A stretch of DNA of 40,037 nucleotides from Escherichia phage vB_EcoP_PHB19: sequence record MN481365.1, one strand, 5' to 3'. Shown in pieces: positions 3,753 through 38,415 of this stretch; positions within the stretch are counted from its first letter, which is position 1; the number at the start of each line of letters is the position of its first letter. Below the pieces are notes generated by a model. It did not search any database, had not been told where the DNA came from, and saw nothing but the letters and a program-made list of their open reading frames with translations. The translations under genes were made by a program, and so were the position numbers.

Positions 3753-3956
3753 TCACTCCTTAGTGGCTTTCTTCCAGTCAATCATCTTATCGACTACCTT
3801 GGCACCAATCTGAACCACTGTGTAGGCGATAGCAGCAACATAGAACCACTCATTAAGACTCAGCCCGAAGAAAAGCCTCGCAGCGCCGTCAGCCACACCA
3901 GTACCAATAATAGGTGCAGCCTTGACTAACTCGTTGTTAAAATCTAAAGATAACAT
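3753..3956 (-). CDS. 17.5: Holin, gp17.5
   Basis: 67 aa with one transmembrane segment, T7 gp17.5-like. Confidence 0.92.
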   Translation of the reverse strand: MLSLDFNNELVKAAPIIGTGVADGAARLFFGLSLNEWFYVAAIAYTVVQIGAKVVDKMIDWKKATKE

Positions 3957-4000
3957 GTGTCCTCCTTATTGTAAGGGCCATCCTTGACCCATTAAGTGAT

Positions 4001-7000
4001 TTACTTCATGTAAATAGTGCGGAACTGTTCGTTACCACCAGAAGCCGTCATAGAGATTTTCAAGCCATCGGTAGTTGGACTAACTTTAGTCTTAGTGTCA
4101 CCACTCCAAGTCATAAAGCGATGAGTCATGCTAAACCAACTAATCGGAACGTCGTTATAGGTTACAGTTCCTAGAGATTCAAACCCTTGGGTAACTATTA
4201 GAGTCTGTCCTACGCATTTCTGGGGGACAACAAACTCTACAGACATCTGTTGAGGGTCTGCTAGTACCTTGACGCCTGCACTAATTAGCCCAGTCTCGGA
4301 GTTAACAAAACGACACCCAGTGAAGTTAACTGCGCCGATGAACAGTCTGTTAGCCTCTAAATCTGTCTCCCATTTACCAACAACGGTTACACCGTTAAAC
4401 TTGATGTCTGAGTTGGCGTTGGCGTTGACAGGGTTAGCATTGTTAGTCCCTACCTTACCACCAGTGATGCTGATAGACATGGGCTGTTCAGACCAACCAC
4501 CTGAGTAGGTATCAAGTTGTGATAACTCGGAGTTTGTTACCTCAAAGCGACCACGATGGGCAATCTCAAGGTGAGCACCCTGCATTCCACCACCACGAGC
4601 CTGTAGGTTATCAATATATACTAATGGGTTGTGCGTATCACCCCGACCCACGATGGACACAGTGTCAGTTCGGCAGTTAGTCAATCGGAACTGGGGGTAC
4701 GTCTGGTCTGTATACTTGTTTCCTGTAGGACTAGTGTTGACGGCCTTAAACTGACTCATGTCGATAGTTAGTGCAGCGCCAGTCTCACCAGTGTCCCAAT
4801 TGTTAACGTTGACAATCATGGGGTGCTTGATGGACTTATCGGTAGAGCTAAGCAGTGATGTAGGCGCTGGTGGATAAAGTCCACGCTCAAAGGTTACACC
4901 ATCAATGTCTACCTTACGAAAGAACGTGAAGTTAACTGGGGACCCAGCGATCGCGCCTTGAGTAGCATTCGGTACACACTCTAAGAATGCTGGAATTGTG
5001 ATACCAGCACGGCCGTTGACTGTGCAGTTCTTTATGTAGAGGTTTCCATCACACCAACCACCAGCGTCACTACGAGAGCGCACAAAGCCAGAAGCATTGA
5101 ACGCATCCCGTTGTAACCAAGTGCTATTAGTGATGTACAGGTCTCCCATAATGGTTACTAGTACACCCCAATTACCAATCACACAGTTATCAATCTTCAA
5201 CCACTCACGAGCAGGCTGGTGGAAGTCAATACGAGATAACTGAGAGTTCTTGAAGGTTACACGTTGTGAGTTATTGGAACCTGTGGAACCCCAACCATAA
5301 CCATCAGATGTGAGGCCATCAATGGTAACGTCGAAGCTGTTCTCAATGGACAGAGAGTATGTGTACGTATCATCAGTGGTGGCATTCACGTCAGAGCAGT
5401 TAACGTTCTCGACACGAATGTACGCTGAGTTACTCACAATGAGTCTGGTCATGTTGATAGGCTTGTATGCCCCACGGTTGAAGTAAGAGATGTTTTTAAT
5501 AACCACGTTGGTAGCATCTTGCACAACTAACAGCCCAACCTTGGTATAATCAGACTCATCGAACGTGATACCCTTAACTTCAAGCCACTGTGCTGTAATA
5601 TACAAACGACGCAGCTTTGTCACTTTCACACCACTAAGAGAGTAATACAGTGGTGCCGCTAACTGACCATCTTTAAATACACGGTTGAACTCATCACGAT
5701 AGCGAGGTTCGCCACGATATTTAAATAGAGGCTGAGTGGTTTCATACTGGATAAAGCTATCATCCATTTCCATGAAGTCTTTCCACCCTGAGAACATTGT
5801 TGAGCCGGTTCCTACGTTAGTTGATAGGCCCAACTTCTGAATAGGAGCATCTGTAGAGGTGAACTCCATCCACTGATGGTCGCGCTTAATGTATACAAAG
5901 CCATTCCACTTAGAAGGCCACAAGGTCGCACCAGACAGGTCGGTGTTAACCTTAATCTCAATATCCCCATTACCAGATAATTTGAAACGACCCGTGGTCT
6001 GACGAACACTAACCTTAAGACGACTAGCGGCATTGAAGCAATTCATGATCTGAGCCAGTGAGTTAGAGTTAGCTGTACGGTCTGCGCCAAACATATCAAA
6101 TGTTAGTTCAGTTTCTACGTAGCGTTCCCAAACACCACCACCAGAAGCAGCAATACGACTACCACCATCGTCCGCCTCAGTGCTCTCTTTGTTTAACACG
6201 AAGATGCCACCACCAACGTTCAGACCCTTGTAGTAGGAATCTACGTATACGTGAGTGTTGTTTGGGGCATAATCTAGTTCTCGCAGGGATGCGATAGAAT
6301 CAACGTGAGTAAGCACATTGTTTACACGGTTAGCAGCTTCTTCTGCCCTATCAGCGTTGGCGCGCGTGCTTTCATCAAGGTCTCGGAGTTCCGGCATAGT
6401 AGCGTTAATCATAGATACTGCCTCGTTAGAGACACGTTCTGATTCGGCAGCGTTTTCCTCAGAGACCTTGGCAGCATCTGCATATTCCTTTGCTTTCAGT
6501 TCAGCCTTCTTAGCCCCATCCTGTGATACTTTAGCAGCGCCCTCAGATTCCACAGCATTCTGTGCGGCCAGTTCCGCACGTTCAGCAGAGTGTAATGCAG
6601 AGTTGTCCCACGAACGAACTTGACGCATAGTGACGGCATCTCCAACATCCACACCATCAGCTAGGTTCACAATACGACGACCACGGGCATCCAAGTGACC
6701 ATCATTGTTGACACCAATAGTATCAGCAGTTAAGTCACGTGCCTCTTCTGCCACATGCATAGTCTGAATCTGAGCCACGTTAAGGTCGTACGCACGGAGG
6801 ATTGAACCATCCGTAAAGTCAACCAGACGGTCAGTCGTGGAGGTTACTCGGCGTAGCTCAATAGTAGTGTAACCGTCCGCAGGACCCCAAGATTTGGTTA
6901 GCGAGATAGTAGTACGCGTAGCAAAGCGATAATCTGTATTGAGTGTGAGGACCTTACGGTCAACACCAATGAGAGTTACCACTACAAACTTACGGGCTAG

Positions 7001-7078
7001 ATATTCAAACGGGATATTAAAATCACGATTTGAGCCATCTAACTGGTAAGTCAAAACGGTCTTAATTACGTTAGCCAT
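4001..7078 (-). CDS. 17: Tail fiber / tailspike, 1025 aa: T7-like adaptor N-terminus plus large non-T7 beta-helix module (putative depolymerase)
   Basis: First ~150 aa near-identical to T7 gp17 (MANVIKTVLTYQLDGSNRDF...). The remainder is unrelated to the T7 fibre and almost twice as long (T7 gp17 is 553 aa), with beta-helix-like repeats (NVVIKNISYF, NLYIKNCTVNG) and an FGA-containing segment. Confidence 0.9.
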   Translation of the reverse strand: MANVIKTVLTYQLDGSNRDFNIPFEYLARKFVVVTLIGVDRKVLTLNTDYRFATRTTISLTKSWGPADGYTTIELRRVTSTTDRLVDFTDGSILRAYDLNVAQIQTMHVAEEARDLTADTIGVNNDGHLDARGRRIVNLADGVDVGDAVTMRQVRSWDNSALHSAERAELAAQNAVESEGAAKVSQDGAKKAELKAKEYADAAKVSEENAAESERVSNEAVSMINATMPELRDLDESTRANADRAEEAANRVNNVLTHVDSIASLRELDYAPNNTHVYVDSYYKGLNVGGGIFVLNKESTEADDGGSRIAASGGGVWERYVETELTFDMFGADRTANSNSLAQIMNCFNAASRLKVSVRQTTGRFKLSGNGDIEIKVNTDLSGATLWPSKWNGFVYIKRDHQWMEFTSTDAPIQKLGLSTNVGTGSTMFSGWKDFMEMDDSFIQYETTQPLFKYRGEPRYRDEFNRVFKDGQLAAPLYYSLSGVKVTKLRRLYITAQWLEVKGITFDESDYTKVGLLVVQDATNVVIKNISYFNRGAYKPINMTRLIVSNSAYIRVENVNCSDVNATTDDTYTYSLSIENSFDVTIDGLTSDGYGWGSTGSNNSQRVTFKNSQLSRIDFHQPAREWLKIDNCVIGNWGVLVTIMGDLYITNSTWLQRDAFNASGFVRSRSDAGGWCDGNLYIKNCTVNGRAGITIPAFLECVPNATQGAIAGSPVNFTFFRKVDIDGVTFERGLYPPAPTSLLSSTDKSIKHPMIVNVNNWDTGETGAALTIDMSQFKAVNTSPTGNKYTDQTYPQFRLTNCRTDTVSIVGRGDTHNPLVYIDNLQARGGGMQGAHLEIAHRGRFEVTNSELSQLDTYSGGWSEQPMSISITGGKVGTNNANPVNANANSDIKFNGVTVVGKWETDLEANRLFIGAVNFTGCRFVNSETGLISAGVKVLADPQQMSVEFVVPQKCVGQTLIVTQGFESLGTVTYNDVPISWFSMTHRFMTWSGDTKTKVSPTTDGLKISMTASGGNEQFRTIYMK

Positions 7079-19857: not shown

Positions 19858-21465
19858 AATTCCCGGCTGTAAACCAACGGAATCAGCGGCAGCAGCCATA
19901 GCCTCAGGTGAAGCTGTAGCCTGTGCAGCCATACCTTGACCAAGCGCAGCAGCACCATTATCCATACCCATTTGCACAGACTGTTGGGCCATCTTCTGTT
20001 GCTTCTGTTCTTCGGTGAGAAGGATGCCAGAAGTATCAATTCCGATAGCGTTTGCAATGCGGAGCTTAATCATAGCAAGGTTAATATCTGGGTCATCACG
20101 CATTGGAGCAAGAGCTGCCCATGCAGTGACACAACGTTCCAGCTTATCTAGGTCTTGACCACGACCGATTGCTTCCAGACCTGTACTAATGGTTGGCTCT
20201 ACGGCTTCCTTAGGTAACTCAGGAATCTGTTGCGTGGCTTGTAGTTGCTTCAAGAGCACTCGTACCAGAGGCAATTGCAATTCTTGAGAAAGGATGGAGT
20301 AGACACCACCTAAAGTATCTTCAAGTTCAGAAGCGACATACCGAATCTCTTCGGCGGTCACTCGTTCACCTGTGCGCTGAACCGCAGAGTTCAACATAAA
20401 GGCAAACGAAAGGCGAGCCTCAATAGCGTCACTGACAGCCTTGGCTACGGTAAAGTCTGCTTGCTTCTCCAGTTGGAGGAACGAGATGTCTTCTGGGCGA
20501 CCAGTAACGAAGTCACCAGTCTGAGCTTTGGTCAGTCGGCGTGGCTGGGTGATACCAGCAGGATTCACTAAGCCGATAACCTTAGAGCTAATCATTGACA
20601 TCTTAACAATAGCCTCTTGGAGATTCTCAAGTGACCGTAAGTCGCCTAAGTATTCCTCAATGTACGAACGACCATAGGATTCGCCGTCCAGTCGAACCAT
20701 CCGAATCGGGATGTACGGGCAAGCCTCTTTAGGGTAAGACCCATCGGAGCCTTGTACCTCCATACCATCGACCTCTTCGTATCGGAGGTATTCGCCTGTG
20801 TCCTCATCCAGATAGATGTGAGTGTACACGTCGATGGTCTCATCGGCTTTCTTCTCACCACCTTGACCTTCTACAGCCTTACGGATGTCCTCAGGGAGAG
20901 CACCGAAAGCTATCTGGTCACGAGTCACCATTTGCAGAACGTTGCCGAATGCGTCTCGTTGGACCACATAAGAAGACAATCGGTACAGCTTCATGGGATT
21001 GTAGTTTGACCCTTCTGGTTCCGGTAGGTACAGCAAGACGTTACCCGCTACGACTAACTGCTTGAGAGCCTCAAAGAGAGTCACTCGGTAGCTGTTCGAC
21101 TCAATGTAGTTCATGATGATACGCTCTACCATTGAGAGACCCTCATCGACCTTAGCGAGTCCATCGGGGTCATTCAGTAACTGTTTGGCCTCATACTCAG
21201 AGATGGTCAGCTTCATCCACGTTTGCATCGGGAAGAGCGCCAGCATGAGCTTAGAGGCCAAGTTATTGAGACCGCGAGCACCCACAGCTTGCCACGGAGT
21301 TGTGTAGTCTGTAGATGCGTTATCGGAGTCCTTAGGGAAGAGGGACGGAATGGTGTACTGAGCGCAGTTTTGAGCACGAGTCTCATAGGGAGCACGGTCG
21401 TTCTTCAATCGCTCATAGACCGACTTTGCTCCTTCCTCGGCTAGACCTGTACGCTTCTCAGCCAT
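19855..21465 (-). CDS. 8: Portal (head-to-tail connector) protein
   Basis: 536 aa, same as T7 gp8. Confidence 0.97.
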   Translation of the reverse strand: MAEKRTGLAEEGAKSVYERLKNDRAPYETRAQNCAQYTIPSLFPKDSDNASTDYTTPWQAVGARGLNNLASKLMLALFPMQTWMKLTISEYEAKQLLNDPDGLAKVDEGLSMVERIIMNYIESNSYRVTLFEALKQLVVAGNVLLYLPEPEGSNYNPMKLYRLSSYVVQRDAFGNVLQMVTRDQIAFGALPEDIRKAVEGQGGEKKADETIDVYTHIYLDEDTGEYLRYEEVDGMEVQGSDGSYPKEACPYIPIRMVRLDGESYGRSYIEEYLGDLRSLENLQEAIVKMSMISSKVIGLVNPAGITQPRRLTKAQTGDFVTGRPEDISFLQLEKQADFTVAKAVSDAIEARLSFAFMLNSAVQRTGERVTAEEIRYVASELEDTLGGVYSILSQELQLPLVRVLLKQLQATQQIPELPKEAVEPTISTGLEAIGRGQDLDKLERCVTAWAALAPMRDDPDINLAMIKLRIANAIGIDTSGILLTEEQKQQKMAQQSVQMGMDNGAAALGQGMAAQATASPEAMAAAADSVGLQPGI

Positions 21466-21479
21466 GTGTCACCTCCTGA

Positions 21480-21812
21480 TTAAATGTTGATGCCGCCACC
21501 GGAGCTACGGGCTACACTCAATGACTTCTTACCACCAGAGCGAGCTTTCCTGCGTCCGCTTTCGGTCTGTGCTTCGTCCTCAGTGGAAACCTCTTTCTCA
21601 GGTACGTCAACAATCTGTGCAGCAGGAGTCGGGGCCGCTGGTACTTCCACTTCCTGTGCCGCGCCTACGCTACCAGCGAGACCACCAGCAATCTGTTTAA
21701 CCGGACGGGTAACTTCCTTAGCAACTTTCTTAACTGCTTTCTTAACGGACTTAGTGACTTTCTTAACTGCTTTCTTAACGGACTTAGTGACTTTCTTAAC
21801 TACCTTACCCAT
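21480..21812 (-). CDS. 7.3: gp7.3 tail/host-range protein with lysine-rich N-terminal repeats
   Basis: 110 aa; MGKVVKKVTKSVKKAVKKVTKSVKKAVKK... and C-terminus ...KKSLSVARSSGGGINI match T7 gp7.3. Contains a perfect 33-bp tandem duplication. Confidence 0.9.
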   Translation of the reverse strand: MGKVVKKVTKSVKKAVKKVTKSVKKAVKKVAKEVTRPVKQIAGGLAGSVGAAQEVEVPAAPTPAAQIVDVPEKEVSTEDEAQTESGRRKARSGGKKSLSVARSSGGGINI

Positions 21813-24655: not shown

Positions 24656-24674
24656 AATAGTTTCTCCTATAGAA

Positions 24675-26789
24675 TTAGTGACATACGGCCCAATTAGGAC
24701 CAATCTTACCTTCGGTATCCAGAAGACACCGGAAGTTCCAGTGGTCTCCTACCCAGCGCATCGCTTCCTGTGCTGTATCGATGACCACCTGAGCAATCTC
24801 TTTGGTACGGCAACCTACTTGGATTTCATCATGTACCCATGCCATGTACGCAAAGTCCCCATCCCAGCCGTGCTTCAAGCCTTTATCTACGAGCATCTCT
24901 TCGGTCTTGATAATCCACAGTTTGCAGATTAGAGCACCAGCAGATTGCAGTAGTGTATTCAAGGCGGCGTGAGGACTACGAACGTGTACCTTACGACCAT
25001 CCAGACCTTTAATCCAGCGGCGTTTCCACTTGACTTGTTGCTCACCGGCTACCCACTGAGAGGACTCGACAAGTGTCTGTTGGATAGACTCTCGGAGTGC
25101 TGCAATCGCAGGGGTGTTCTCAAGGAATTTCTTCTTGAGTTCCTTACCGCGCTCTTTACCAGCACCAACAATCTGCCCAATCTTCTCGTCACCAGCACCA
25201 TAGAGGAACCCATAGATGAACGTCTTAGCGTTATCACGGGTTGGCAATTCAGCAGCCATCTGGTTCTTAGTGTGAATGTCACCATTAAGAATCTCGTGAG
25301 CATACTCACCGTTATCAAAGCGAGCCATGAAGTGAGCCAAGCAGCGTAGCTCCAGACCGGATGCGTCGATGCCAGCCTGAACCCAAGGCTTACCTGTAAG
25401 TCCATCTAGGTGATGTTCAGCACCAAAAGCAGCACGGCATTGTTCACCGTATGGCGAACGTACACCTGGAATTTGCGCAAGGTTAGGGAAAGCATGAGTG
25501 GCGCGACCAGTAACTGCCCCGTTAGGGTTTACAGAACCATGAATCTTACCGTCCTCGGCAACGTAACGAAGCCATGCCTTATCTCCCTCAGCGGACTGTC
25601 CGATTCTCTTCTGAATCATCAAGTATTCTTTAATGAGGTCGATAGCAGCTTGCTTCTCAGGGTCATCTACACGTACTCCTTCTAGTACCTCATCGTCTAC
25701 CACAGGCGCACCCTTATCGGTGTACTTCGTTGGGACCCATCCAGCCTCTTGAAGTTTCTTCTGAATGTGGTCACGAGACGAAGGGTTAAACACTACGTGC
25801 TCAACTGGCGTATAAGGAGCACCAGCAACGTACTCGCGGGTATCCAGTTCGCAAGGCTCACGGCCTTCTCTCTGTGCCTTGTTCTTAGGCTTCTTAAAGA
25901 TGCCACCAACTTTAGGTGTCTTAATGCGAGGATACTTAGGAAGTGGTTTACCAGTCCTCGGATGGCAGAACATTTCGGTGCCACCTTTAGGTTGATACCA
26001 TGAGCCGAACGTTTCGGTCAGCTTGCGCAGCAACTCAGAGCGACGAGCAGCTAACTCTACGTACAACTCTTCGATTGCTTTCGTGTCAAACGGGAATCCA
26101 TTGCGCTCTTGCTTAGCGAGTAGCCATGCAGCGCGATGTTCAACGTCAACGGCCTCAAGGGATTCTGACCAGAACGTAGTGTATCCTACGTCCGTAAAGT
26201 CAATCTCAGGCGGGAAGTAATGTTTATCAGAGAGTAACTTCTCAAGGAGAGCCTTAGTGACCACAACGTCCTGAACGTTATAGTCCATCATCTCTTCGTT
26301 GAAGTTCCACCATTCCATTCCGTCAATGTATTCTTCACCTTGCTCTTCAAGCATACGCTTAAAGTCATCCTTGTATTCACCCTTCATCTCGCCTAAGCGA
26401 TAACCCCACGCCTCCAGAGCGTGAGACCCAAAGCGTTTACCAGGCAACTTACCGGAACGCAGAAGACCCATATCGGTGTCTTTTAGGTTGGAGTGAATCA
26501 AGCGTGACAACACAAGGGTGTCAATACAGTTCTCCCGTGGAATGTGGAACTCACGGTTCAATTGCAGTTTAGCCAGTTTGGTCAATGCGGGAACGTCATA
26601 CTTGTGACCGTTGTGGAACACAATAAGACCGCCTCGTGCAACCTCGGCTTCCAGCGCATCCAGATACGCACCGAAGTCACTCGGACGGTAGCTTACGTAC
26701 TCATCGGTGGAGTAGTCGTAGATAACCCCGCAGTGGAACTTAGTGACGCTCTCTAAGAGGGCGTTAGCTTCGATGTCAGAAACGATCAT
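24675..26789 (-). CDS. 5: DNA polymerase (family A) with 3'-5' exonuclease domain
   Basis: 704 aa, same as T7 gp5. Confidence 0.98.
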
Positions 26790-26808: not shown

Positions 26809-27225
26809 TTACTTACCTGTAAATGCACGAACGATTTCATTATATGGGACAACTCTCAGTTGATCAGCCTGATACATCTTAGACGACTCTTGTGCTATAA
26901 CGCAGTCAAAGACTATGCGTTCTATAAACGACACTTGTGCTAGGTGGCCTCTTACACTTCGCACGTAACCATATCCACCCACGACTCCCGTGTCAACCTT
27001 AACCCAATCACCAGCCTTGATGTGTGTCATAGTGTCCTTATCGAACACCTTGTGGCTCAGCTTGTAAGATTCCGGCTTCTTCCAGCCAGTCTGTCGAGTC
27101 CAAGTCCACCCTAAGTTCTTCAAAATGTGAACAGCGGAGCGAGTCTTGGCTTCATGGCACTTAACGTCCTCAAGTTCAGCTTCAAGTTTAGCGATTTCTG
27201 CTTGGATAATTTTAGGGTCACGCAT
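26809..27225 (-). CDS. 4.7: gp4.7
   Basis: Internal start MRDPKIIQAEIAKLEAELEDVK..., matches T7 gp4.7; the track ORF reads through the promoter. Confidence 0.85.
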   Translation of the reverse strand: MRDPKIIQAEIAKLEAELEDVKCHEAKTRSAVHILKNLGWTWTRQTGWKKPESYKLSHKVFDKDTMTHIKAGDWVKVDTGVVGGYGYVRSVRGHLAQVSFIERIVFDCVIAQESSKMYQADQLRVVPYNEIVRAFTGK

Positions 27226-27232
27226 GATAATA

Positions 27233-27258
27233 TCTCCTATAGTGAGTCGAATAGTATT
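27233..27258 (-). promoter_or_regulatory. T7 RNAP promoter phi4.7 (variant upstream half)
   Basis: Coding strand taatactattcgactcactataggagat: the -12 to +1 core is conserved, the -17 to -13 AT-recognition region differs from consensus. Confidence 0.7.
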
Positions 27259-27298
27259 AATGAAGGCCACCACTTTGGCGACCTTGAGTGTATCACTC
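27258..27298 (-). promoter_or_regulatory. RNase III site R4.7
   Basis: atgaaggccaccactttggcgaccttgagtg, conserved RNase III hairpin motif. Confidence 0.55.
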
Positions 27299-27568
27299 TT
27301 AACTATCAATCTTGTCGAGGATAGCCATAGCTTCATCAACGCGACCAGCCTCATGAATTGCGGTCACGGCAGCTTTGGTAAGCGCATTGACCAGACGCAG
27401 TGCTTGCTCGTCCGTCAACGTCATACGCTGAGTGTGATTCTTAGAGGACTTAGAGTCCTTCCAACGGTAAACCATAGTAGCCTTTCCGTTACGAACGTTG
27501 ATGTGAACTCGACGGTTCCACTGGTCGGCGGTATCGGATAGACGGATAGTTTCAGCTACTTGTGTCAT
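27299..27568 (-). CDS. 4.5: gp4.5
   Basis: Internal start MTQVAETIRLSDTADQWNRRVHINV...; 89 aa, near-identical to T7 gp4.5. Confidence 0.9.
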   Translation of the reverse strand: MTQVAETIRLSDTADQWNRRVHINVRNGKATMVYRWKDSKSSKNHTQRMTLTDEQALRLVNALTKAAVTAIHEAGRVDEAMAILDKIDS

Positions 27569-27827: not shown

Positions 27828-29601
<1,774 letters not shown>

Positions 29602-29633
29602 TCAATAATGCGAACAAAGGGAAACCGTTGTGG

Positions 29634-29656
29634 TCTCCCTATAGTGAGTTCAATTA
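29634..29656 (-). promoter_or_regulatory. T7 RNAP promoter phi3.8
   Basis: taattgaactcactatagggaga on the coding strand, directly upstream of gene 4 with no gene 3.8 between. Confidence 0.8.
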
Positions 29657-30109
29657 GCCACGGTCAGACGTGACAAGTTCGTTCTTCTCCCACCAACGCT
29701 TAAGGTCGAACGAAGGGCAAGCCTTGGGTGCGACATCGTGATGGGCTTTCAGTACAGCGCCTTCGTACTTAGCCAGTAGTGTGACAAGCAGTGAGCGAAG
29801 GGATTTCATTTGGGCTGGCGTAAAGTTAGCTTCGAACTTACCTTTATCGTCAATGCCACCAACAAGGCAGACACCGATTGAGTTGTGATTGTGGCCCTTA
29901 GCGTGAGAACCTACAGCCATCTCGTCTCGGCCTTCCTCTACAGTGCCATCTCGTTTGATGATAAAGTGATACCCCACATCAAGCCAACCTTGCTCTTTAT
30001 GCCACTGACGAATCTCACGGACACCTACATTCTGACTTGGCTTGGTAGCCGAGCAGTGAACAAAAATTGCGTCAGTAGATTCACGTTGTTTAAACTGTAC
30101 ACGAGCCAT
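29654..30109 (-). CDS. 3.5: Lysozyme (N-acetylmuramoyl-L-alanine amidase), also an RNAP inhibitor in T7
   Basis: 151 aa, T7 gp3.5 length and sequence. Confidence 0.97.
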   Translation of the reverse strand: MARVQFKQRESTDAIFVHCSATKPSQNVGVREIRQWHKEQGWLDVGYHFIIKRDGTVEEGRDEMAVGSHAKGHNHNSIGVCLVGGIDDKGKFEANFTPAQMKSLRSLLVTLLAKYEGAVLKAHHDVAPKACPSFDLKRWWEKNELVTSDRG

Positions 30110-30561
30110 TATTTCTTCTCCTTCTTAATAATCATTTTGTCCCAAGGAATCTCCTTACTAGGTTCTTTAAGCCATTCCGCAGGTATCAACTTATCTGCGA
30201 ACTTAATGCTGTGTTTTTCTGCCCACTCACCGTAGCTGGTGGGAGACCCTTTGTATAACTTGGTGCGACTTGAAGAGAACACGATGCGTATATCGAGGTC
30301 TGGGAACTGTTCGCGAATAAGCAAATGTTTCTTACGGTCTTCTGCTTCGAACAATCCCTTGAACTCTACTATGATACCGTTTGGTAGCAACGCGTCAGGT
30401 GTATATTTATGGTTACTAGCTGGTATTACATAAGGGATTGAGAATGATTCATATTTAGCCTTAACTCCCATACTCTCCAAGCGTGCCATATTTTTCTCTT
30501 CAAGTCCACTTCGGTAGTTTCCTACACGTTTAATTCCTCGTGCTGCGTAACATGCTGCCAT
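30109..30561 (-). CDS. 3: Endonuclease I (Holliday-junction resolvase), divergent from T7
   Basis: 150 aa with the conserved core PYVIPASNH.YTPD..LPNGI.VE.KG...DRKKHLLIREQ.P.LDIRIVFSSSRTKLYKGSPTSYGE; about two-thirds identical to T7 gp3 by eye; DNA visibly more AT-rich than its neighbours. Confidence 0.9.
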   Translation of the reverse strand: MAACYAARGIKRVGNYRSGLEEKNMARLESMGVKAKYESFSIPYVIPASNHKYTPDALLPNGIIVEFKGLFEAEDRKKHLLIREQFPDLDIRIVFSSSRTKLYKGSPTSYGEWAEKHSIKFADKLIPAEWLKEPSKEIPWDKMIIKKEKK

Positions 30562-31019
30562 GCCTTACCTCTCTTTATGCAATGAATTAACTTCTGAGAG
30601 ACTCCAAACAGTGCTGCAAGTTTACGCTGCGACAAGGTTGACATATAGATTTCAAGTACCTCTTCTTCTGTCAGTTTAGCATTAACATGGTCACTTCCAA
30701 TCATTACCGGAGGTAGTTTGTTCCTCCCTCTACTGATAGCGTCTGAGCTGTTATCCTTATATGTGCCGCTACGCAAGTGCTCAGGATTACAACACTTGCG
30801 ATTATCACAGGAGTGTAAAACTAGCTGGCCTTTTGGAATCTCGCCAATGAACACCTCGTGTGAGACCCTATGTGCCGTCTCATTCCGGTGCCCTCCTGTA
30901 GCAATGTTTCCATAACCGTGACTCCCGAATGACTTCTGCCATATCCAGCATCCATTCTCATCGGGAATCACATTGTCTAGAATTTTCTTCTGCAATGCCT
31001 CACGGCTAAGGCGTGGCAT
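30522..31019 (-). CDS. HNH-family (HNH_3-type) endonuclease, putative homing endonuclease, at the T7 gene 2.8 position
   Basis: 165 aa; ENGCWIWQ...GYGNI...HRVSHEVFIGEIPKGQLVLHSCDNRKCCNPEHL is an HNH_3-like signature, followed by a helix-turn-helix-like tail. Start overlaps the gene 2.5 stop (TAATG); the 3' end overlaps gene 3. Confidence 0.8.
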   Translation of the reverse strand: MPRLSREALQKKILDNVIPDENGCWIWQKSFGSHGYGNIATGGHRNETAHRVSHEVFIGEIPKGQLVLHSCDNRKCCNPEHLRSGTYKDNSSDAISRGRNKLPPVMIGSDHVNAKLTEEEVLEIYMSTLSQRKLAALFGVSQKLIHCIKRGKAWQHVTQHEELNV

Positions 31020-31717
31020 TAAAAATCTCCGTCTGAGTCTTCTTCGTAAGAGCCTTCGTCGTCTTCGTCCCAGCTTTCTTCGTCGCGTGGTTTGCTCGCT
31101 TTGGCAGAACCAGAGGCAACATAGCCGTTCTCTTCAACTTCGTCAGCCCAATCGTCTTCACCGCCACCAAAGGTAGCCAGTTCGACCAGCATCACGGATT
31201 CCAGTTGCAGCTTAACGCTTGCACCCACAGCGGTGTTCCACTTGTACGGAACCAGAGAGTATTTGACTTTCAGCTTAGAGCCACCGCCGATAATCGGAAC
31301 GTCTTCCATCTTCTTACCTTTGGAGTCAACCACAACCAGATTGATGTGCTTGGTCTCTTTGGTCTTCTTGTCTTGGAAAGACGCGTAGCATTTAAACTTA
31401 AAGGTAGTCGTACCGTCACCGTTATCGAAGAACGGCATGTCACCTTCATACGGTTTCAGCGGTTTCTTACCACGAGCTACGGACGGCGGGTTAGCCTCAT
31501 ATTCCTCAACGGCAGCAGCATAAGCCTCTTCGTGACACTTCACGATTTCATCGACCATACGTTGACAACGCGGGTCTTTGTTGGGAATAGTCAGGTCAAC
31601 TTTGTAGACACCACGCGGGTTCCCAAAGCCACGCTCTTCGTTACCGTAGTCCGGCTTAGAGATGTAAGCGTAAGGTTCAGCAGTACCCAGTGCAGAGGTG
31701 AAAATCTTCTTAGCCAT
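31019..31717 (-). CDS. 2.5: Single-stranded DNA-binding protein
   Basis: 232 aa as in T7 gp2.5, with the acidic C-terminal tail ending DDEGSYEEDSDGDF. Confidence 0.97.
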   Translation of the reverse strand: MAKKIFTSALGTAEPYAYISKPDYGNEERGFGNPRGVYKVDLTIPNKDPRCQRMVDEIVKCHEEAYAAAVEEYEANPPSVARGKKPLKPYEGDMPFFDNGDGTTTFKFKCYASFQDKKTKETKHINLVVVDSKGKKMEDVPIIGGGSKLKVKYSLVPYKWNTAVGASVKLQLESVMLVELATFGGGEDDWADEVEENGYVASGSAKASKPRDEESWDEDDEGSYEEDSDGDF

Positions 31718-31750
31718 AATGTTAATCTCCTTTAGGTTTCGTTTAGTTTC

Positions 31751-31775
31751 TCAGAGGGAGTCTTCCCCAATAGTG
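31751..31775 (-). promoter_or_regulatory. T7 RNAP promoter phi2.5
   Basis: taatacgactcactattggggaaga on the coding strand (phi2.5-type start). Confidence 0.85.
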
Positions 31776-31782
31776 AGTCGTA

Positions 31783-32049
<267 letters not shown>

Positions 32050-32084
32050 CTATACACTCAGTCCACATCTTGTGGCACCATTCA

Positions 32085-32318
32085 CTAGGCTTTAAGATTG
32101 GCTTCATTAGCTTCCTCCAATCTCTTCAAGTACCACTGAGCCTTCTTCAAGTCCTCAGTAGGGTTAAACTTCTTCTCGTAACGCCACATGTATTTCAGTA
32201 CATTACCTTTAAGGAATCCTTTAAATGCCTCTTCTGTCATTGACGCGCGAATCGCGTCGAGACATTCAATTCCACCAGACGTGTAATGTTCTGGTTGGTT
32301 TACCATGTCTTTGCTCAT
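32085..32318 (-). CDS. Short gp1.7-like protein (77 aa), apparently only the conserved C-terminal core of the T7 nucleotide kinase gp1.7
   Basis: ...PEHYTSGGIECLDAIRASMTEEAFKGFLKGNVLKYMWRYEKK...DLKKAQWYLKRL matches the pattern of the T7 gp1.7 C-terminal region as I recall it; start overlaps the gene 1.6 stop (ATGA). Confidence 0.75.
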   Translation of the reverse strand: MSKDMVNQPEHYTSGGIECLDAIRASMTEEAFKGFLKGNVLKYMWRYEKKFNPTEDLKKAQWYLKRLEEANEANLKA

Positions 32319-32578
32319 CAGAACACCTCCTTGATTCGTTTGAGTAACAGACGGACGAACGGGAAGCGGGTCACTGCCACGCTAAGAACCGGACGTTTCT
32401 TGTCTATTGCTTTCTCGAAGTCACCACGAGTGATAATGATGTGGACGCTCGGTGCCAAAGGAACTGTGTTACCAATAAGAGGTAGCTTAGCTCGGCGCTC
32501 GCTCGCACATACGATCGAACGGTCAGCACGACGAACCGTGAAATTCTTAAGGCTTTTGTTGAAGTGAAGTCGGAACAT
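32318..32578 (-). CDS. 1.6: gp1.6
   Basis: Internal start [31 protein letters not shown]...; near-identical to T7 gp1.6. Confidence 0.9.
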
Positions 32579-32584
32579 ATAGTG

Positions 32585-32606
32585 TCTCCTATAGTGAGTC
32601 GTATTA
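32585..32606 (-). promoter_or_regulatory. T7 RNAP promoter phi1.6
   Basis: tctcctatagtgagtcgtatta. Confidence 0.85.
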
Positions 32607-32694
32607 AGCGTGACCATCGGGCATGTCGTCATCATTCTTAAAGTGAAGCGCAAGACATCCAATGATAATAATTAGTAATGGAAGTAAGTACATC
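32605..32694 (-). CDS. 1.5: gp1.5 (29 aa)
   Basis: Hand translation [30 protein letters not shown] between phi1.5 and phi1.6, same size and position as T7 gp1.5. Confidence 0.6.
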
Positions 32695-37169: not shown

Positions 37170-38249
37170 TCATCCCATTAGCATTGCGTCAAGTTGCTTA
37201 TCAATGTTTAGCGGAAGACCATTAGCGATAGCCATCCGGTCAGCATTACGCCAGCGCAGCGAGATTCGCTCCTCAAGCGCCTTAAAGTCCCCAGAGAGCA
37301 TATTGACCCAGAGCATAGCGTTATTGGTTCTTCCGAGTACATCTACAGCTACCTCATGGTTACGCCGTTCTTGACGCTCGTTCATACGCCATAGTGCTGT
37401 TAGTCTTTCACGCTTAGCGCGGTGTGCCTTACGTGCCTTACGGTTAATGCGTTTGACTCTACGCGCTTGTAAGCGTCCCTCATGGCGTGCTTTACGCTCC
37501 TTGGCGCGGTCTATTGCTTTCTGGCGTGCGACCTCCTCGACTTCCTTAATGAGTTCCTCAGGGTCAATACTGAAAGCGCCACCGTCTTCCTTGTGTGAGA
37601 ATGACACAGGGTCGGTAATGTATGGTACATCATTATCGTCGAACATAATGTTACCGCTGTGCATGTCGAACGAAGCGATGCCCTCAAAGAACTTGCGGAT
37701 TAGCTTGCACGTCTCGACGAACTCCCCATCCCATCCAGTACGTTTGTCATACACATCCGAGTTATAATCAATAATGCCGCTTGCCATTGAAGCATACTTC
37801 TCATGATCCTCGTTATCGTAACGTTCGCAGTCGTTGAGAGCATCGAGAACCACCGTGTAACAGCCTGCATGACGCTGTACGTCGTAGACGTTAGGGATAC
37901 CAGCGCGACCCTGATACATGCGGCAGAATGCGATATACGCAGCGCCTGAATCCTCTTTCTTAAAGCCCACCTTAATCACTCTGTTAGGCAGCAATGGGTG
38001 GCTATAAGCAGCCGAGAAGTGACCATTACCGAGCATCTTAAACCCTGCGTCAGTCGTGAGACACTTTAAGGTAGTCCACCAGTCTTGAAATTCAAGCGGC
38101 TTATCCAGCTTGGTGATCTCTCCATCACACGTTTCACTGTTGACCATCTCGGCCAGCAAATCAATGAGCATACCTTGACGTTTATCAAGTTCACAGATTG
38201 GCAGTGCTTTGATTGCGTCGATAGCGTTCATGATGTCGATAGCGTTCAC
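37170..38249 (-). CDS. 0.7: Ser/Thr protein kinase and host shut-off protein
   Basis: 359 aa as in T7 gp0.7, including the native [13 protein letters not shown]-terminus. Confidence 0.96.
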
Positions 38250-38277
38250 TTTGTGCGTTCTCCAGTGTTAAATGTGA

Positions 38278-38415
38278 TTAGATATTGTTGATCTTGCGGT
38301 TGATGCGCAGTTCACGCTTAAGGCGTTCGATACGTTGTTTCATTGCGAAGCCATCAGGTGTGCAAACTGTAGCGCCGTTCTTGGTGTGGATGGGCATAAC
38401 GTAATATTTCAGCAT
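38278..38415 (-). CDS. 0.6: gp0.6-like small protein
   Basis: Internal start MLKYYVMPIHTKNGATVCTPDGFAMKQRIERLKRELRINRKINNI, matches T7 gp0.6A. Confidence 0.7.
   Translation of the reverse strand: MLKYYVMPIHTKNGATVCTPDGFAMKQRIERLKRELRINRKINNI

Follow-up and report, generated by a model that had tools for sequence, protein, structure and literature searches.

The genome of Escherichia phage vB_EcoP_PHB19 carries a predicted HNH endonuclease gene between genes 2.5 and 3, the slot that gene 2.8 occupies in T7, and the adjacent gene 3 differs strongly from that of T7. The stretch analyzed here (sequence record MN481365.1; all 40,037 nucleotides (nt) of it are called the window) is a near-complete T7-like (Teseptimavirus) genome in reverse orientation, with its genes on the minus strand in a BLAST comparison with T7. 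Most of the genes are about 82-93% identical to T7 at the nucleotide level by BLAST, and over the whole genome Escherichia phage pO111 and Shigella phage ESh6 match best, with about 92-93% identity. The locus has the following features, where ORF stands for open reading frame and aa for amino acids.

31763-31785, minus strand: T7-type promoter-like site at the phi2.5 position (consensus search, 3 mismatches)
31019-31717, minus strand: gene 2.5, single-stranded DNA-binding protein, the conserved upstream flank (Pfam SBB_T7, E=1.2e-89)
30522-31019, minus strand: HNH ORF, 165 aa, free-standing, in the gene 2.8 slot (ORF list and Pfam HNH_3)
30494-31060, minus strand: 567-nt tract with 1 mismatch to the metagenomic contig L168 (mismatch map)
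30109-30561, minus strand: gene 3, endonuclease I (Holliday-junction resolvase), 150 aa (full-length match to Pfam Phage_endo_I, E=1.8e-74)
29654-30109, minus strand: gene 3.5, amidase/lysozyme, the conserved downstream flank (Pfam Amidase_2)
29634-29656, minus strand: T7-type promoter-like site at the phi3.8 position, downstream of gene 3.5 (consensus search, 3 mismatches)
27886-29586, minus strand: gene 4 (ORF list and Pfam)

The HNH gene overlaps both of its neighbors. Its ATG start codon begins at 31019 on the minus strand and overlaps the stop of gene 2.5 (TAATG), and the last 40 nt of the ORF overlap the start of gene 3, whose stop codon has its final base at 30109. The consensus search found 12 T7-type promoter matches on the minus strand of the window, with 0 expected by chance. 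Between the phi2.5-type and phi3.8-type sites it found no further promoter-like site, so genes 2.5, HNH, 3, and 3.5 are probably co-transcribed as one class II transcription unit.

The domains and modeled structure of the HNH protein suggest that its gene encodes an intact nuclease of the HNH_3 or His-Me-finger type with a C-terminal helix-turn-helix (HTH) domain. The original prediction had described a 165-aa HNH_3-type protein with an HTH-like tail, and both features are borne out. Residues 49-91 match Pfam HNH_3 (PF13392) at E=2.9e-10, with 40.1 bits against a cut-off of 24.8. There is a second, weaker Pfam match to zf-His_Me_endon, and the protein matches the PHROG HNH families at E=2.4e-31. 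Three parts can be distinguished.

30750-30815, minus strand: catalytic and zinc core, H69 to N90 (HSCDNRKCCNPEHL...N; alignment of 48 homologues and motif scan)
30672-30725, minus strand: flexible linker, residues ~99-116 (alignment; pLDDT, the predicted local distance difference test score, ~62 at residues 101-110)
30570-30671, minus strand: predicted C-terminal HTH DNA-binding domain, residues ~117-150 (model, Foldseek, and alignment)

The HSCDNRKCCNPEHL motif lies at 30774-30815 and is the sole copy in the window in a motif scan. Residues H69, C71, C76, N78, P79, H81, G85, N90, and D93 are invariant in the 48 homologues, and C24 is conserved in 90% or more of them. In a profile search against PDB sequences, the H69 to N90 segment aligned with the active-site segment 73-119 of I-PpoI (E=0.003), which places H69, C71, C76, H81, and N90 at I-PpoI positions 98, 100, 105, 110, and 119; we take these I-PpoI residues to include the catalytic histidine, the metal-binding asparagine, and the zinc ligands. 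The AlphaFold model, built on the 48 homologues, has a mean pLDDT of 92.4. It contains a beta-beta-alpha-metal fold, with strands at residues 66-69 and 82-85 followed by a helix at 87-96, and a C-terminal three-helix bundle (118-126, 131-138, and 142-149). The best structural matches in the PDB by Foldseek are I-HmuI (probability 0.99) and then I-PpoI, with modest E-values of 0.012 to 0.16. The C-terminal part matches the HTH domains of sigma region 4, LuxR, resolvase, and TrpR as well as the C-terminus of I-HmuI. The linker holds an insertion of 10-12 residues (NKLPPVMIGSDH) that the proteins of T7, pO111, PC127, and Patroon lack in the alignment.

The HNH protein belongs to the same family as T7 gp2.8, yet it is not a vertical orthologue of gp2.8. 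Whether gp2.8 is itself an HNH protein had been left open, and it is: gp2.8 is a homologue in the same slot, with 40% aa identity to the PHB19 protein (BLASTP, E=6e-32). Its T7 paralogue gp7.7 is 39% identical. The neighboring proteins gp2.5, gp3.5, and gp4 are 94-97% identical to those of T7, and the 40% of gp2.8 falls far below the roughly 95% of these neighbors. The gp2.8-type alleles proper, those of RN5i1 and FE44 (82-83% aa identity to T7), cluster apart from the PHB19 protein. The other HNH-type genes of T7, 3.8, 5.3, and 7.7, have no counterpart in PHB19 by BLAST, and tblastn with the T7 proteins matched only the gene at the 2.8 locus, the single HNH gene of the window. At the corresponding PHB19 positions (29586-29654, 24672-24675, and 21465-21480) the adjoining genes follow one another with hardly any spacer.

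Among isolate genomes, the nearest relatives of the protein are those of Klebsiella phage Patroon, Leclercia phage 10164-302, Pantoea phage F2M1C, and Klebsiella phage KP32, with 57-70% aa identity; the top isolate matches have 65-66% by tblastn and 70% in the alignment. An IMG/VR search for relatives found none above 57%. In a large protein database the closest sequences are two metagenomic proteins, P0001 (99%) and P0002 (80%). The pO111 protein is a different, T7-like allele (41% by BLASTP). The Berlinvirus PC127 (Salmonella phage vB_SalM_PC127, ON754979.1) has an intact HNH ORF of 143 aa between genes 2.5 and 3 (L005:2914-3345, minus strand) that is unannotated in GenBank. In the alignment the PC127 protein has an HTH domain like that of PHB19 and a nuclease domain of a different type, and the BLAST tract between the two phages covers 30682-29610, the HTH part and gene 3. 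The sharing of the HTH domain but not the nuclease domain points to a recombination point within the HNH gene near 30682. Overall the PHB19 gene is a new allele of a selfish gene of familiar type, and no isolate protein exceeds 70% aa identity to its product.

The divergence of gene 3 from T7 is confined to a block with abrupt edges. Gene 3 is 65.6% identical to T7 in nucleotides and 69% in amino acids, and 65.8% identical in nucleotides to phage 13a, which lacks the HNH gene. Gene 2.5 has 94.3% nt and 96.6% aa identity to T7 (94-96% nt to T7 and 13a), and gene 3.5 has 91.0% nt and 95.4% aa. In 60-nt windows against T7 and 13a, identity falls from 96-100% to 45-78% between 31019 and about 30110 and then returns to 95-98%. 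The break is at the gene 2.5 stop codon and the recovery at the junction of genes 3 and 3.5, in the first codons of 3.5. The original prediction had put gene 3 by eye at about two-thirds identity, with much closer flanks, and had suggested a swapped module at 30109-31019. The alignments agree with the first estimate, and the identity plot places the edges at those positions. The block is thus swapped relative to T7, because gp2.8 is 40% identical instead of about 95% and gene 3 is 65.6% identical between flanks of 91-94%. The two results that would have spoken against the original prediction, a gp2.8 orthologue as conserved as the rest and a gene 3 as conserved as its neighbors, were both looked for and did not appear.

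The low GC (guanine plus cytosine) content of gene 3 is a property of this gene in general. At 42.2% it is indeed AT-richer than genes 2.5 (49.9%) and 3.5 (49.3%), as had been noted, but the gene 3 of T7 is equally low (41.8%), so this is no sign of foreign origin relative to T7. In all 97 loci of the survey described below, gene 3 has a lower GC content than its flanks; the shortfall averages 2.9 points in HNH-less phages and 5.2 points in those with an HNH gene, with overlapping ranges. AT-richness was therefore rejected as evidence of foreign origin, and the property is somewhat stronger in the HNH-linked alleles.

The substitution pattern suggests that the PHB19 gene 3 is an old, imported allele, predicted to be functional, and not a fast-evolving local copy. 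Against 13a and T7 the proportion of differences at synonymous sites (pS) is saturated at 0.85-0.90 and that at nonsynonymous sites (pN) is 0.22-0.24, similar to the divergence between genera. The PHB19 allele is labeled W-type here. Among W-type alleles the ratio of nonsynonymous to synonymous substitution rates (dN/dS) is 0.02-0.10; the ratio for gene 2.5 against L168 was left out since the contig truncates that gene. The pairwise alignment also shows the retention of what we take, from T7 endonuclease I, to be the acidic and lysine active-site residues. W-type alleles are found in the following phages.

pO111: 93% nt identity to the PHB19 gene 3, with a different HNH protein (41% aa)
Vi06 and the CHRF group: ~90% nt
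Berlinvirus PC127: 86% nt, with genes 2.5 and 3.5 only 67-68% identical
RN5i1 and FE44: 85-87% nt

The HNH-linked gene 3 alleles of the W-type, of T7, and of Patroon are mutually only 65-69% identical in nucleotides, and the idea that they form one clade was rejected on this basis.

A survey of related loci shows that replacement of gene 3 goes with occupation of the 2.8 slot. Eighty loci from IMG/VR, collected with gp2.5 as the query, were combined with annotated and metagenomic loci to give 97 usable ones; in all, about 1,100 Studiervirinae records match gene 3. L181 (Salmonella phage S9-5) was left out; it is a Lederbergvirus with its HNH gene in an unrelated context. Between the stop codon of gene 2.5 and the start of gene 3, 77 of the 97 loci are empty (no more than 30 nt between the genes), an HNH gene is present in 17, and three hold a 77-nt remnant. 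Presence and absence at one exact site among collinear relatives is characteristic of homing endonuclease genes. Each HNH-bearing or remnant phage was then compared in multiple alignments with the nearest HNH-less phage by flank identity, with about 87% or more counted as close. Gene 3 is 21-33 identity points below the flanks in 13 of the 14 HNH-bearing or remnant phages that have a close HNH-less relative. No drop occurs among the 77 HNH-less control pairs, in which the difference between gene 3 and flanks ranges from -0.7 to +6.7. Five further HNH-bearing loci have no close HNH-less relative in the sample and are uninformative.

The phages listed with a replaced gene 3 are T7, PHB19, pO111, L168, Vi06, two CHRF phages, PC127, RN5i1, FE44, PcCB251, Patroon, CT02, and 2050H2, and they represent roughly six independent lineages. 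T7 itself fits the pattern: its gene 3 has 73% nt identity to 13a, while genes 2.5 and 3.5 have 96% and 93%. The end of gene 2.5 also differs between the two groups. Its last two codons are GACTTC in 72 of the 77 HNH-less loci and in two of the 20 HNH-bearing or remnant loci (Fisher p=3e-13, with shared ancestry ignored). The HNH-bearing and remnant loci use GAT and/or TTT, and PHB19 has GAT TTT, which is synonymous (Asp-Phe). It is possible that the context of the HNH start codon affects these end codons. Replacement of gene 3 and the end codons of gene 2.5 thus both track the presence of HNH, as co-conversion of flanking markers would leave them, although this is a correlation in which kinship is ignored.

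Comparisons with close and distant relatives show that the HNH gene has moved. Contig L168, which carries P0001, is a close metagenomic relative of PHB19. The 567-nt tract that differs from it at one position spans the last 40 nt of gene 2.5, the entire HNH gene, and gene 3 as far as its nucleotide 68. Starting at 30493, 12% of the positions in gene 3 differ, mostly third codon positions, and genes 2.5 and 3.5 show about 4% differences; the HNH gene is 99.8% identical in nucleotides and the flanking genes 88-96%. At a background of 4%, the Poisson probability of no more than one mismatch in 567 nt is 3e-9. This makes the HNH gene much younger than the sequence that surrounds it. In comparisons across genera, T7 gp2.8 shares 83% aa identity with its counterparts in RN5i1 and FE44, and the flanks share 65% nt. 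Serratia phage 2050H2 (L178) and Klebsiella phage 5OI88 (L179) have HNH proteins that are 85% identical and gene 3 sequences that are 86% identical in nucleotides, with flanks at 68%, and this is the clearest case of HNH and gene 3 moving together between genera. HNH identities well above those of the flanks, both with L168 and across genera, are what horizontal transfer of a homing endonuclease gene leaves.

Three phages retain just pieces of the gene. Vi06 (L099), CHRF_10027 (L174), and CHRF_10025 (L175) have a 77-nt spacer between genes 2.5 and 3 in which two pieces of an HNH gene are fused, ~55 nt from its 5' end and ~20 nt from its 3' end. The spacer resembles the 5' end of the PcCB251 HNH gene, and part of it is annotated in CHRF_10027 as a 38-aa hypothetical protein. 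It is a decayed HNH copy, and the W-type gene 3 stayed in place.

Taken together, the evidence makes it likely that the PHB19 ORF is a free-standing homing endonuclease gene of the T7 gp2.8/gp7.7 HNH family that drives exchange of its flanks. The gene, expressed with its neighbors from the phi2.5-type promoter, would meet an HNH-less relative in a co-infection, and the enzyme would nick or cut the DNA of the relative at or near the junction of genes 2.5 and 3. Repair from the HNH-bearing genome would copy the HNH gene together with a variable length of flank, from a few codons of gene 2.5 up to the whole of gene 3. Repeated events, some of them between genera, would make the 30109-31019 block foreign relative to T7 and 13a. 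They would also re-assort the HNH and gene 3 alleles and leave the HNH-linked gene 3 alleles old and deeply diverged. Variable tract length would account for differences clustered in the first 40 nt of gene 3 in KP32, for an exchange that stops 68 nt into gene 3 between PHB19 and L168, and for a whole gene 3 that moved with the HNH gene in 2050H2 and 5OI88. We infer the cleavage activity, the target site, and co-conversion by the PHB19 enzyme from comparisons of sequence. Across genera, the 5' ends of HNH-less gene 3 alleles show no conservation beyond GACTTCTAA(T/G)TG, and no guess at a recognition site is possible from them.

Several observations weigh against homing with flank exchange in its simplest form. 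The HNH and gene 3 alleles are not strictly linked: in pO111 a W-type gene 3 stands next to a T7-like HNH, L168 shares its HNH gene with PHB19 and has another W-type sub-allele (88% identity in gene 3), and T7 and RN5i1 share an HNH type without sharing a gene 3 type. On the basis of these combinations, the idea that each HNH allele is always inherited with a single gene 3 allele was rejected. The present HNH and gene 3 alleles of PHB19 do not appear to have arrived as one piece, because pO111 has the same gene 3 with another HNH and L168 the same HNH with another gene 3. The original prediction of flank replacement driven by homing is supported in that the HNH slot tracks gene 3 replacement (13 of 14 against 0 of 77), and not as the transfer of the present pair of alleles in one piece. 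KP32 is another difficulty. It has an HNH gene, and its gene 3 is close to that of its HNH-less relatives (90-94% nt), with a drop of only -5. The survey counts ignore shared ancestry, and Przondovirus loci dominate the sample. The synonymous saturation of gene 3 means that the donor lineage is old. Finally, literature searches, with subscription journals outside their coverage, found no biochemical study of cleavage or homing by T7 gp2.8.

A more specific form of the idea, which we regard as tentative and on balance unlikely, is that HNH and the gene 3 allele next to it act as a selfish cassette of two parts. In HNH-less phages the nuclease would target either the canonical junction of genes 2.5 and 3 or gene 3 at its 5' end, and the linked gene 3 together with the GAT TTT end of gene 2.5 would be resistant. 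Recombinants that separate the nuclease from the resistant site would then cut themselves and be lost. If this were true, exchange across gene 3 would be suppressed, and several ancient gene 3 lineages, mutually 65-73% identical, would be preserved while hopping between genera of the Studiervirinae.

Ordinary modular mosaicism is an improbable alternative to homing. It would hold that the block was exchanged when genomes recombined by general homology at the conserved ends of genes 2.5 and 3.5, with HNH as a passive or inactive passenger. The edges of the block do fall at the highly conserved acidic tail of gene 2.5 and the N-terminus of gene 3.5, which would make ready recombination arms, and the independent re-assortment of the HNH and gene 3 alleles fits this mode of exchange. 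T7-like phages are also mosaic elsewhere, as in gene 17 and the gene 1.7-2 region of PHB19. However, gene 3 is replaced only in genomes that have or have had HNH at the site, and in none of the 77 control pairs. The catalytic and zinc-binding residues are all intact, and between PHB19 and L168 the HNH gene has changed far less than its flanks, which is unexpected for a neutral passenger.

It is quite improbable that the HNH protein is instead a domesticated DNA-binding protein, kept for a benefit to the phage that is independent of the nuclease, such as the masking of DNA ends from GAPS4, with gene 3 under separate selection. T7 genes 2.8, 3.8, and 7.7 have been treated as homing endonucleases, and the T7 HNH proteins attenuate GAPS4 defence independently of catalysis (bioRxiv 10.1101/2025.09.07.674715). 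In that study GAPS4 was blocked by a T7 gp3.8 without catalytic activity and by a second phage HNH protein, and a T7 mutant without 2.8, 7.7, and 3.8 lost competitions only with GAPS4 present. The HTH domain is also well conserved in the HNH proteins. Domestication nevertheless leaves unexplained the presence and absence at one site, the remnants, the transfer across genera, and the link to gene 3, and the dN/dS of the W-type gene 3 is that of purifying and not of diversifying selection. A benefit to the phage is compatible with homing and does not replace it.

In-place divergence of gene 3 through relaxed constraint or AT mutational bias, to which its AT-richness, greatest in HNH-bearing genomes, might point, is extremely improbable and was rejected, since the same allele (86-93% nt) occurs in pO111, Vi06, and Berlinvirus phages with flanks of only ~65-70%, the edges are abrupt at gene boundaries, synonymous sites are saturated while pN stays at 0.22-0.24 with a full-length Phage_endo_I match, and gene 3 has a lower GC content than its flanks in every surveyed phage.

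As a homing endonuclease gene, the PHB19 gene resembles several known systems, of which T7 is the closest. T7 gp2.8 and gp7.7 are putative HNH homing endonucleases that share with the PHB19 protein an HNH_3 domain and a C-terminal HTH, gp2.8 in the same 2.5/3 slot, and the 3' end of gene 2.8 likewise overlaps the start of gene 3. T7 also has an outlier gene 3 allele of its own (73% nt to 13a, with flanks at 93-96%). Compared with gp2.8, which has 139 aa, the 165-aa PHB19 protein has an extended linker and an extended C-terminal tail as well as a different gene 3 partner, and in its N-terminal part it groups with Patroon and KP32 in a different sub-lineage (GCWIWQKSFGSHGYGN; 61-70% aa). The HNH proteins of Patroon, 10164-302, F2M1C, and KP32 are encoded at the same position and have a conserved HTH sequence in common with the PHB19 protein (LSQRKLA..YGVSQ.LI..IKRG.AWQ). 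These four phages belong to other genera (Teetrevirus and Przondovirus), lack the linker insertion, and have other gene 3 alleles (64-66% nt).

I-HmuI of Bacillus phage SPO1 (PDB 1U3E) has the same order of domains, an HNH nuclease followed by a C-terminal HTH. Its gene lies within a group I intron, and the enzyme nicks a single strand. The Foldseek match to the PHB19 protein (probability 0.99) covers 150 aligned columns, and there is a weak profile match over both domains (E=0.014). Sequence identity is ~15% and the global TM-score is 0.36, as expected for two flexibly linked domains. Unlike the intron-borne I-HmuI gene, the PHB19 gene stands free between two complete genes, and the region 29000-32500 has no Rfam match at E<=1. 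An HNH protein encoded in a group I intron was rejected for these two reasons.

Free-standing endonuclease genes in other phages provide further parallels. In the reports on SegB, SegG, and MobE of T4-like phages and on the regions of ICP1 bounded by homing endonuclease genes, the endonuclease gene lies amid conserved essential genes and is present or absent among relatives, as at the PHB19 locus (PMC2330249, PMC2790892, PMC2988022, PMC10055350). The same reports describe flanking markers that are co-converted or excluded and domains that are shuffled, and nuclease genes at the boundaries of genetic exchange are a described phenomenon (PMC10055350). The T4 cases have experimental data on cleavage and marker exclusion, whereas the evidence on the PHB19 locus comes from sequence comparison. 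The Seg proteins are GIY-YIG enzymes, unlike the HNH protein of PHB19.

Other regions of the window also differ from T7. The tail fibre gene, in the gene 17 position (4001-7078, minus strand; 1025 aa), matches the N-terminal domain of the T7 tail fibre only in residues 1-155, and BLAST found no nt similarity to T7 at 3956-6645; the fibre is probably a swapped receptor-binding or depolymerase module. An ORF of 77 aa with a DUF3310 match (E=2e-25) lies at 32085-32318 (minus strand), between the gene 1.6/1.7 region and gene 2, in a segment (31994-32316) without similarity to T7. The ORF at 32318-32662 (minus strand) covers the homologue of T7 gene 1.6 and matches Pfam PF06726, 'Bladder cancer-related protein BC10', above the cut-off (E=2.8e-23), an odd family name for an early phage protein. 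Two ORFs, of 181 aa (26809-27354, minus strand) and 359 aa (37170-38249, minus strand), have no Pfam match at E<=0.001. The latter is in the position of the protein kinase (gene 0.7), and 37698-38290 has no nt similarity to T7.

The PHB19 locus holds a commonplace type of element, seen here in an exceptionally clear comparative context. The FE44 and pO111 records already annotate the gene in the 2.8 slot as a homing endonuclease. The literature searches, limited as above to sources other than subscription journals, found no report of an association across genera between occupancy of this slot and replacement of gene 3. Within the sample, occupancy of the 2.8 slot predicts replacement of gene 3, an essential resolvase gene, across several genera of T7-like phages, T7 included. 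This makes the locus a testable system for how far homing endonucleases drag neighboring essential genes between phages, with small genomes, simple crosses, and natural alleles that carry HNH, lack it, or retain a remnant. The pattern bears on the engineering of T7-like phages and on the use of gene 3 or of the sequences from 2.5 to 3.5 as phylogenetic markers.

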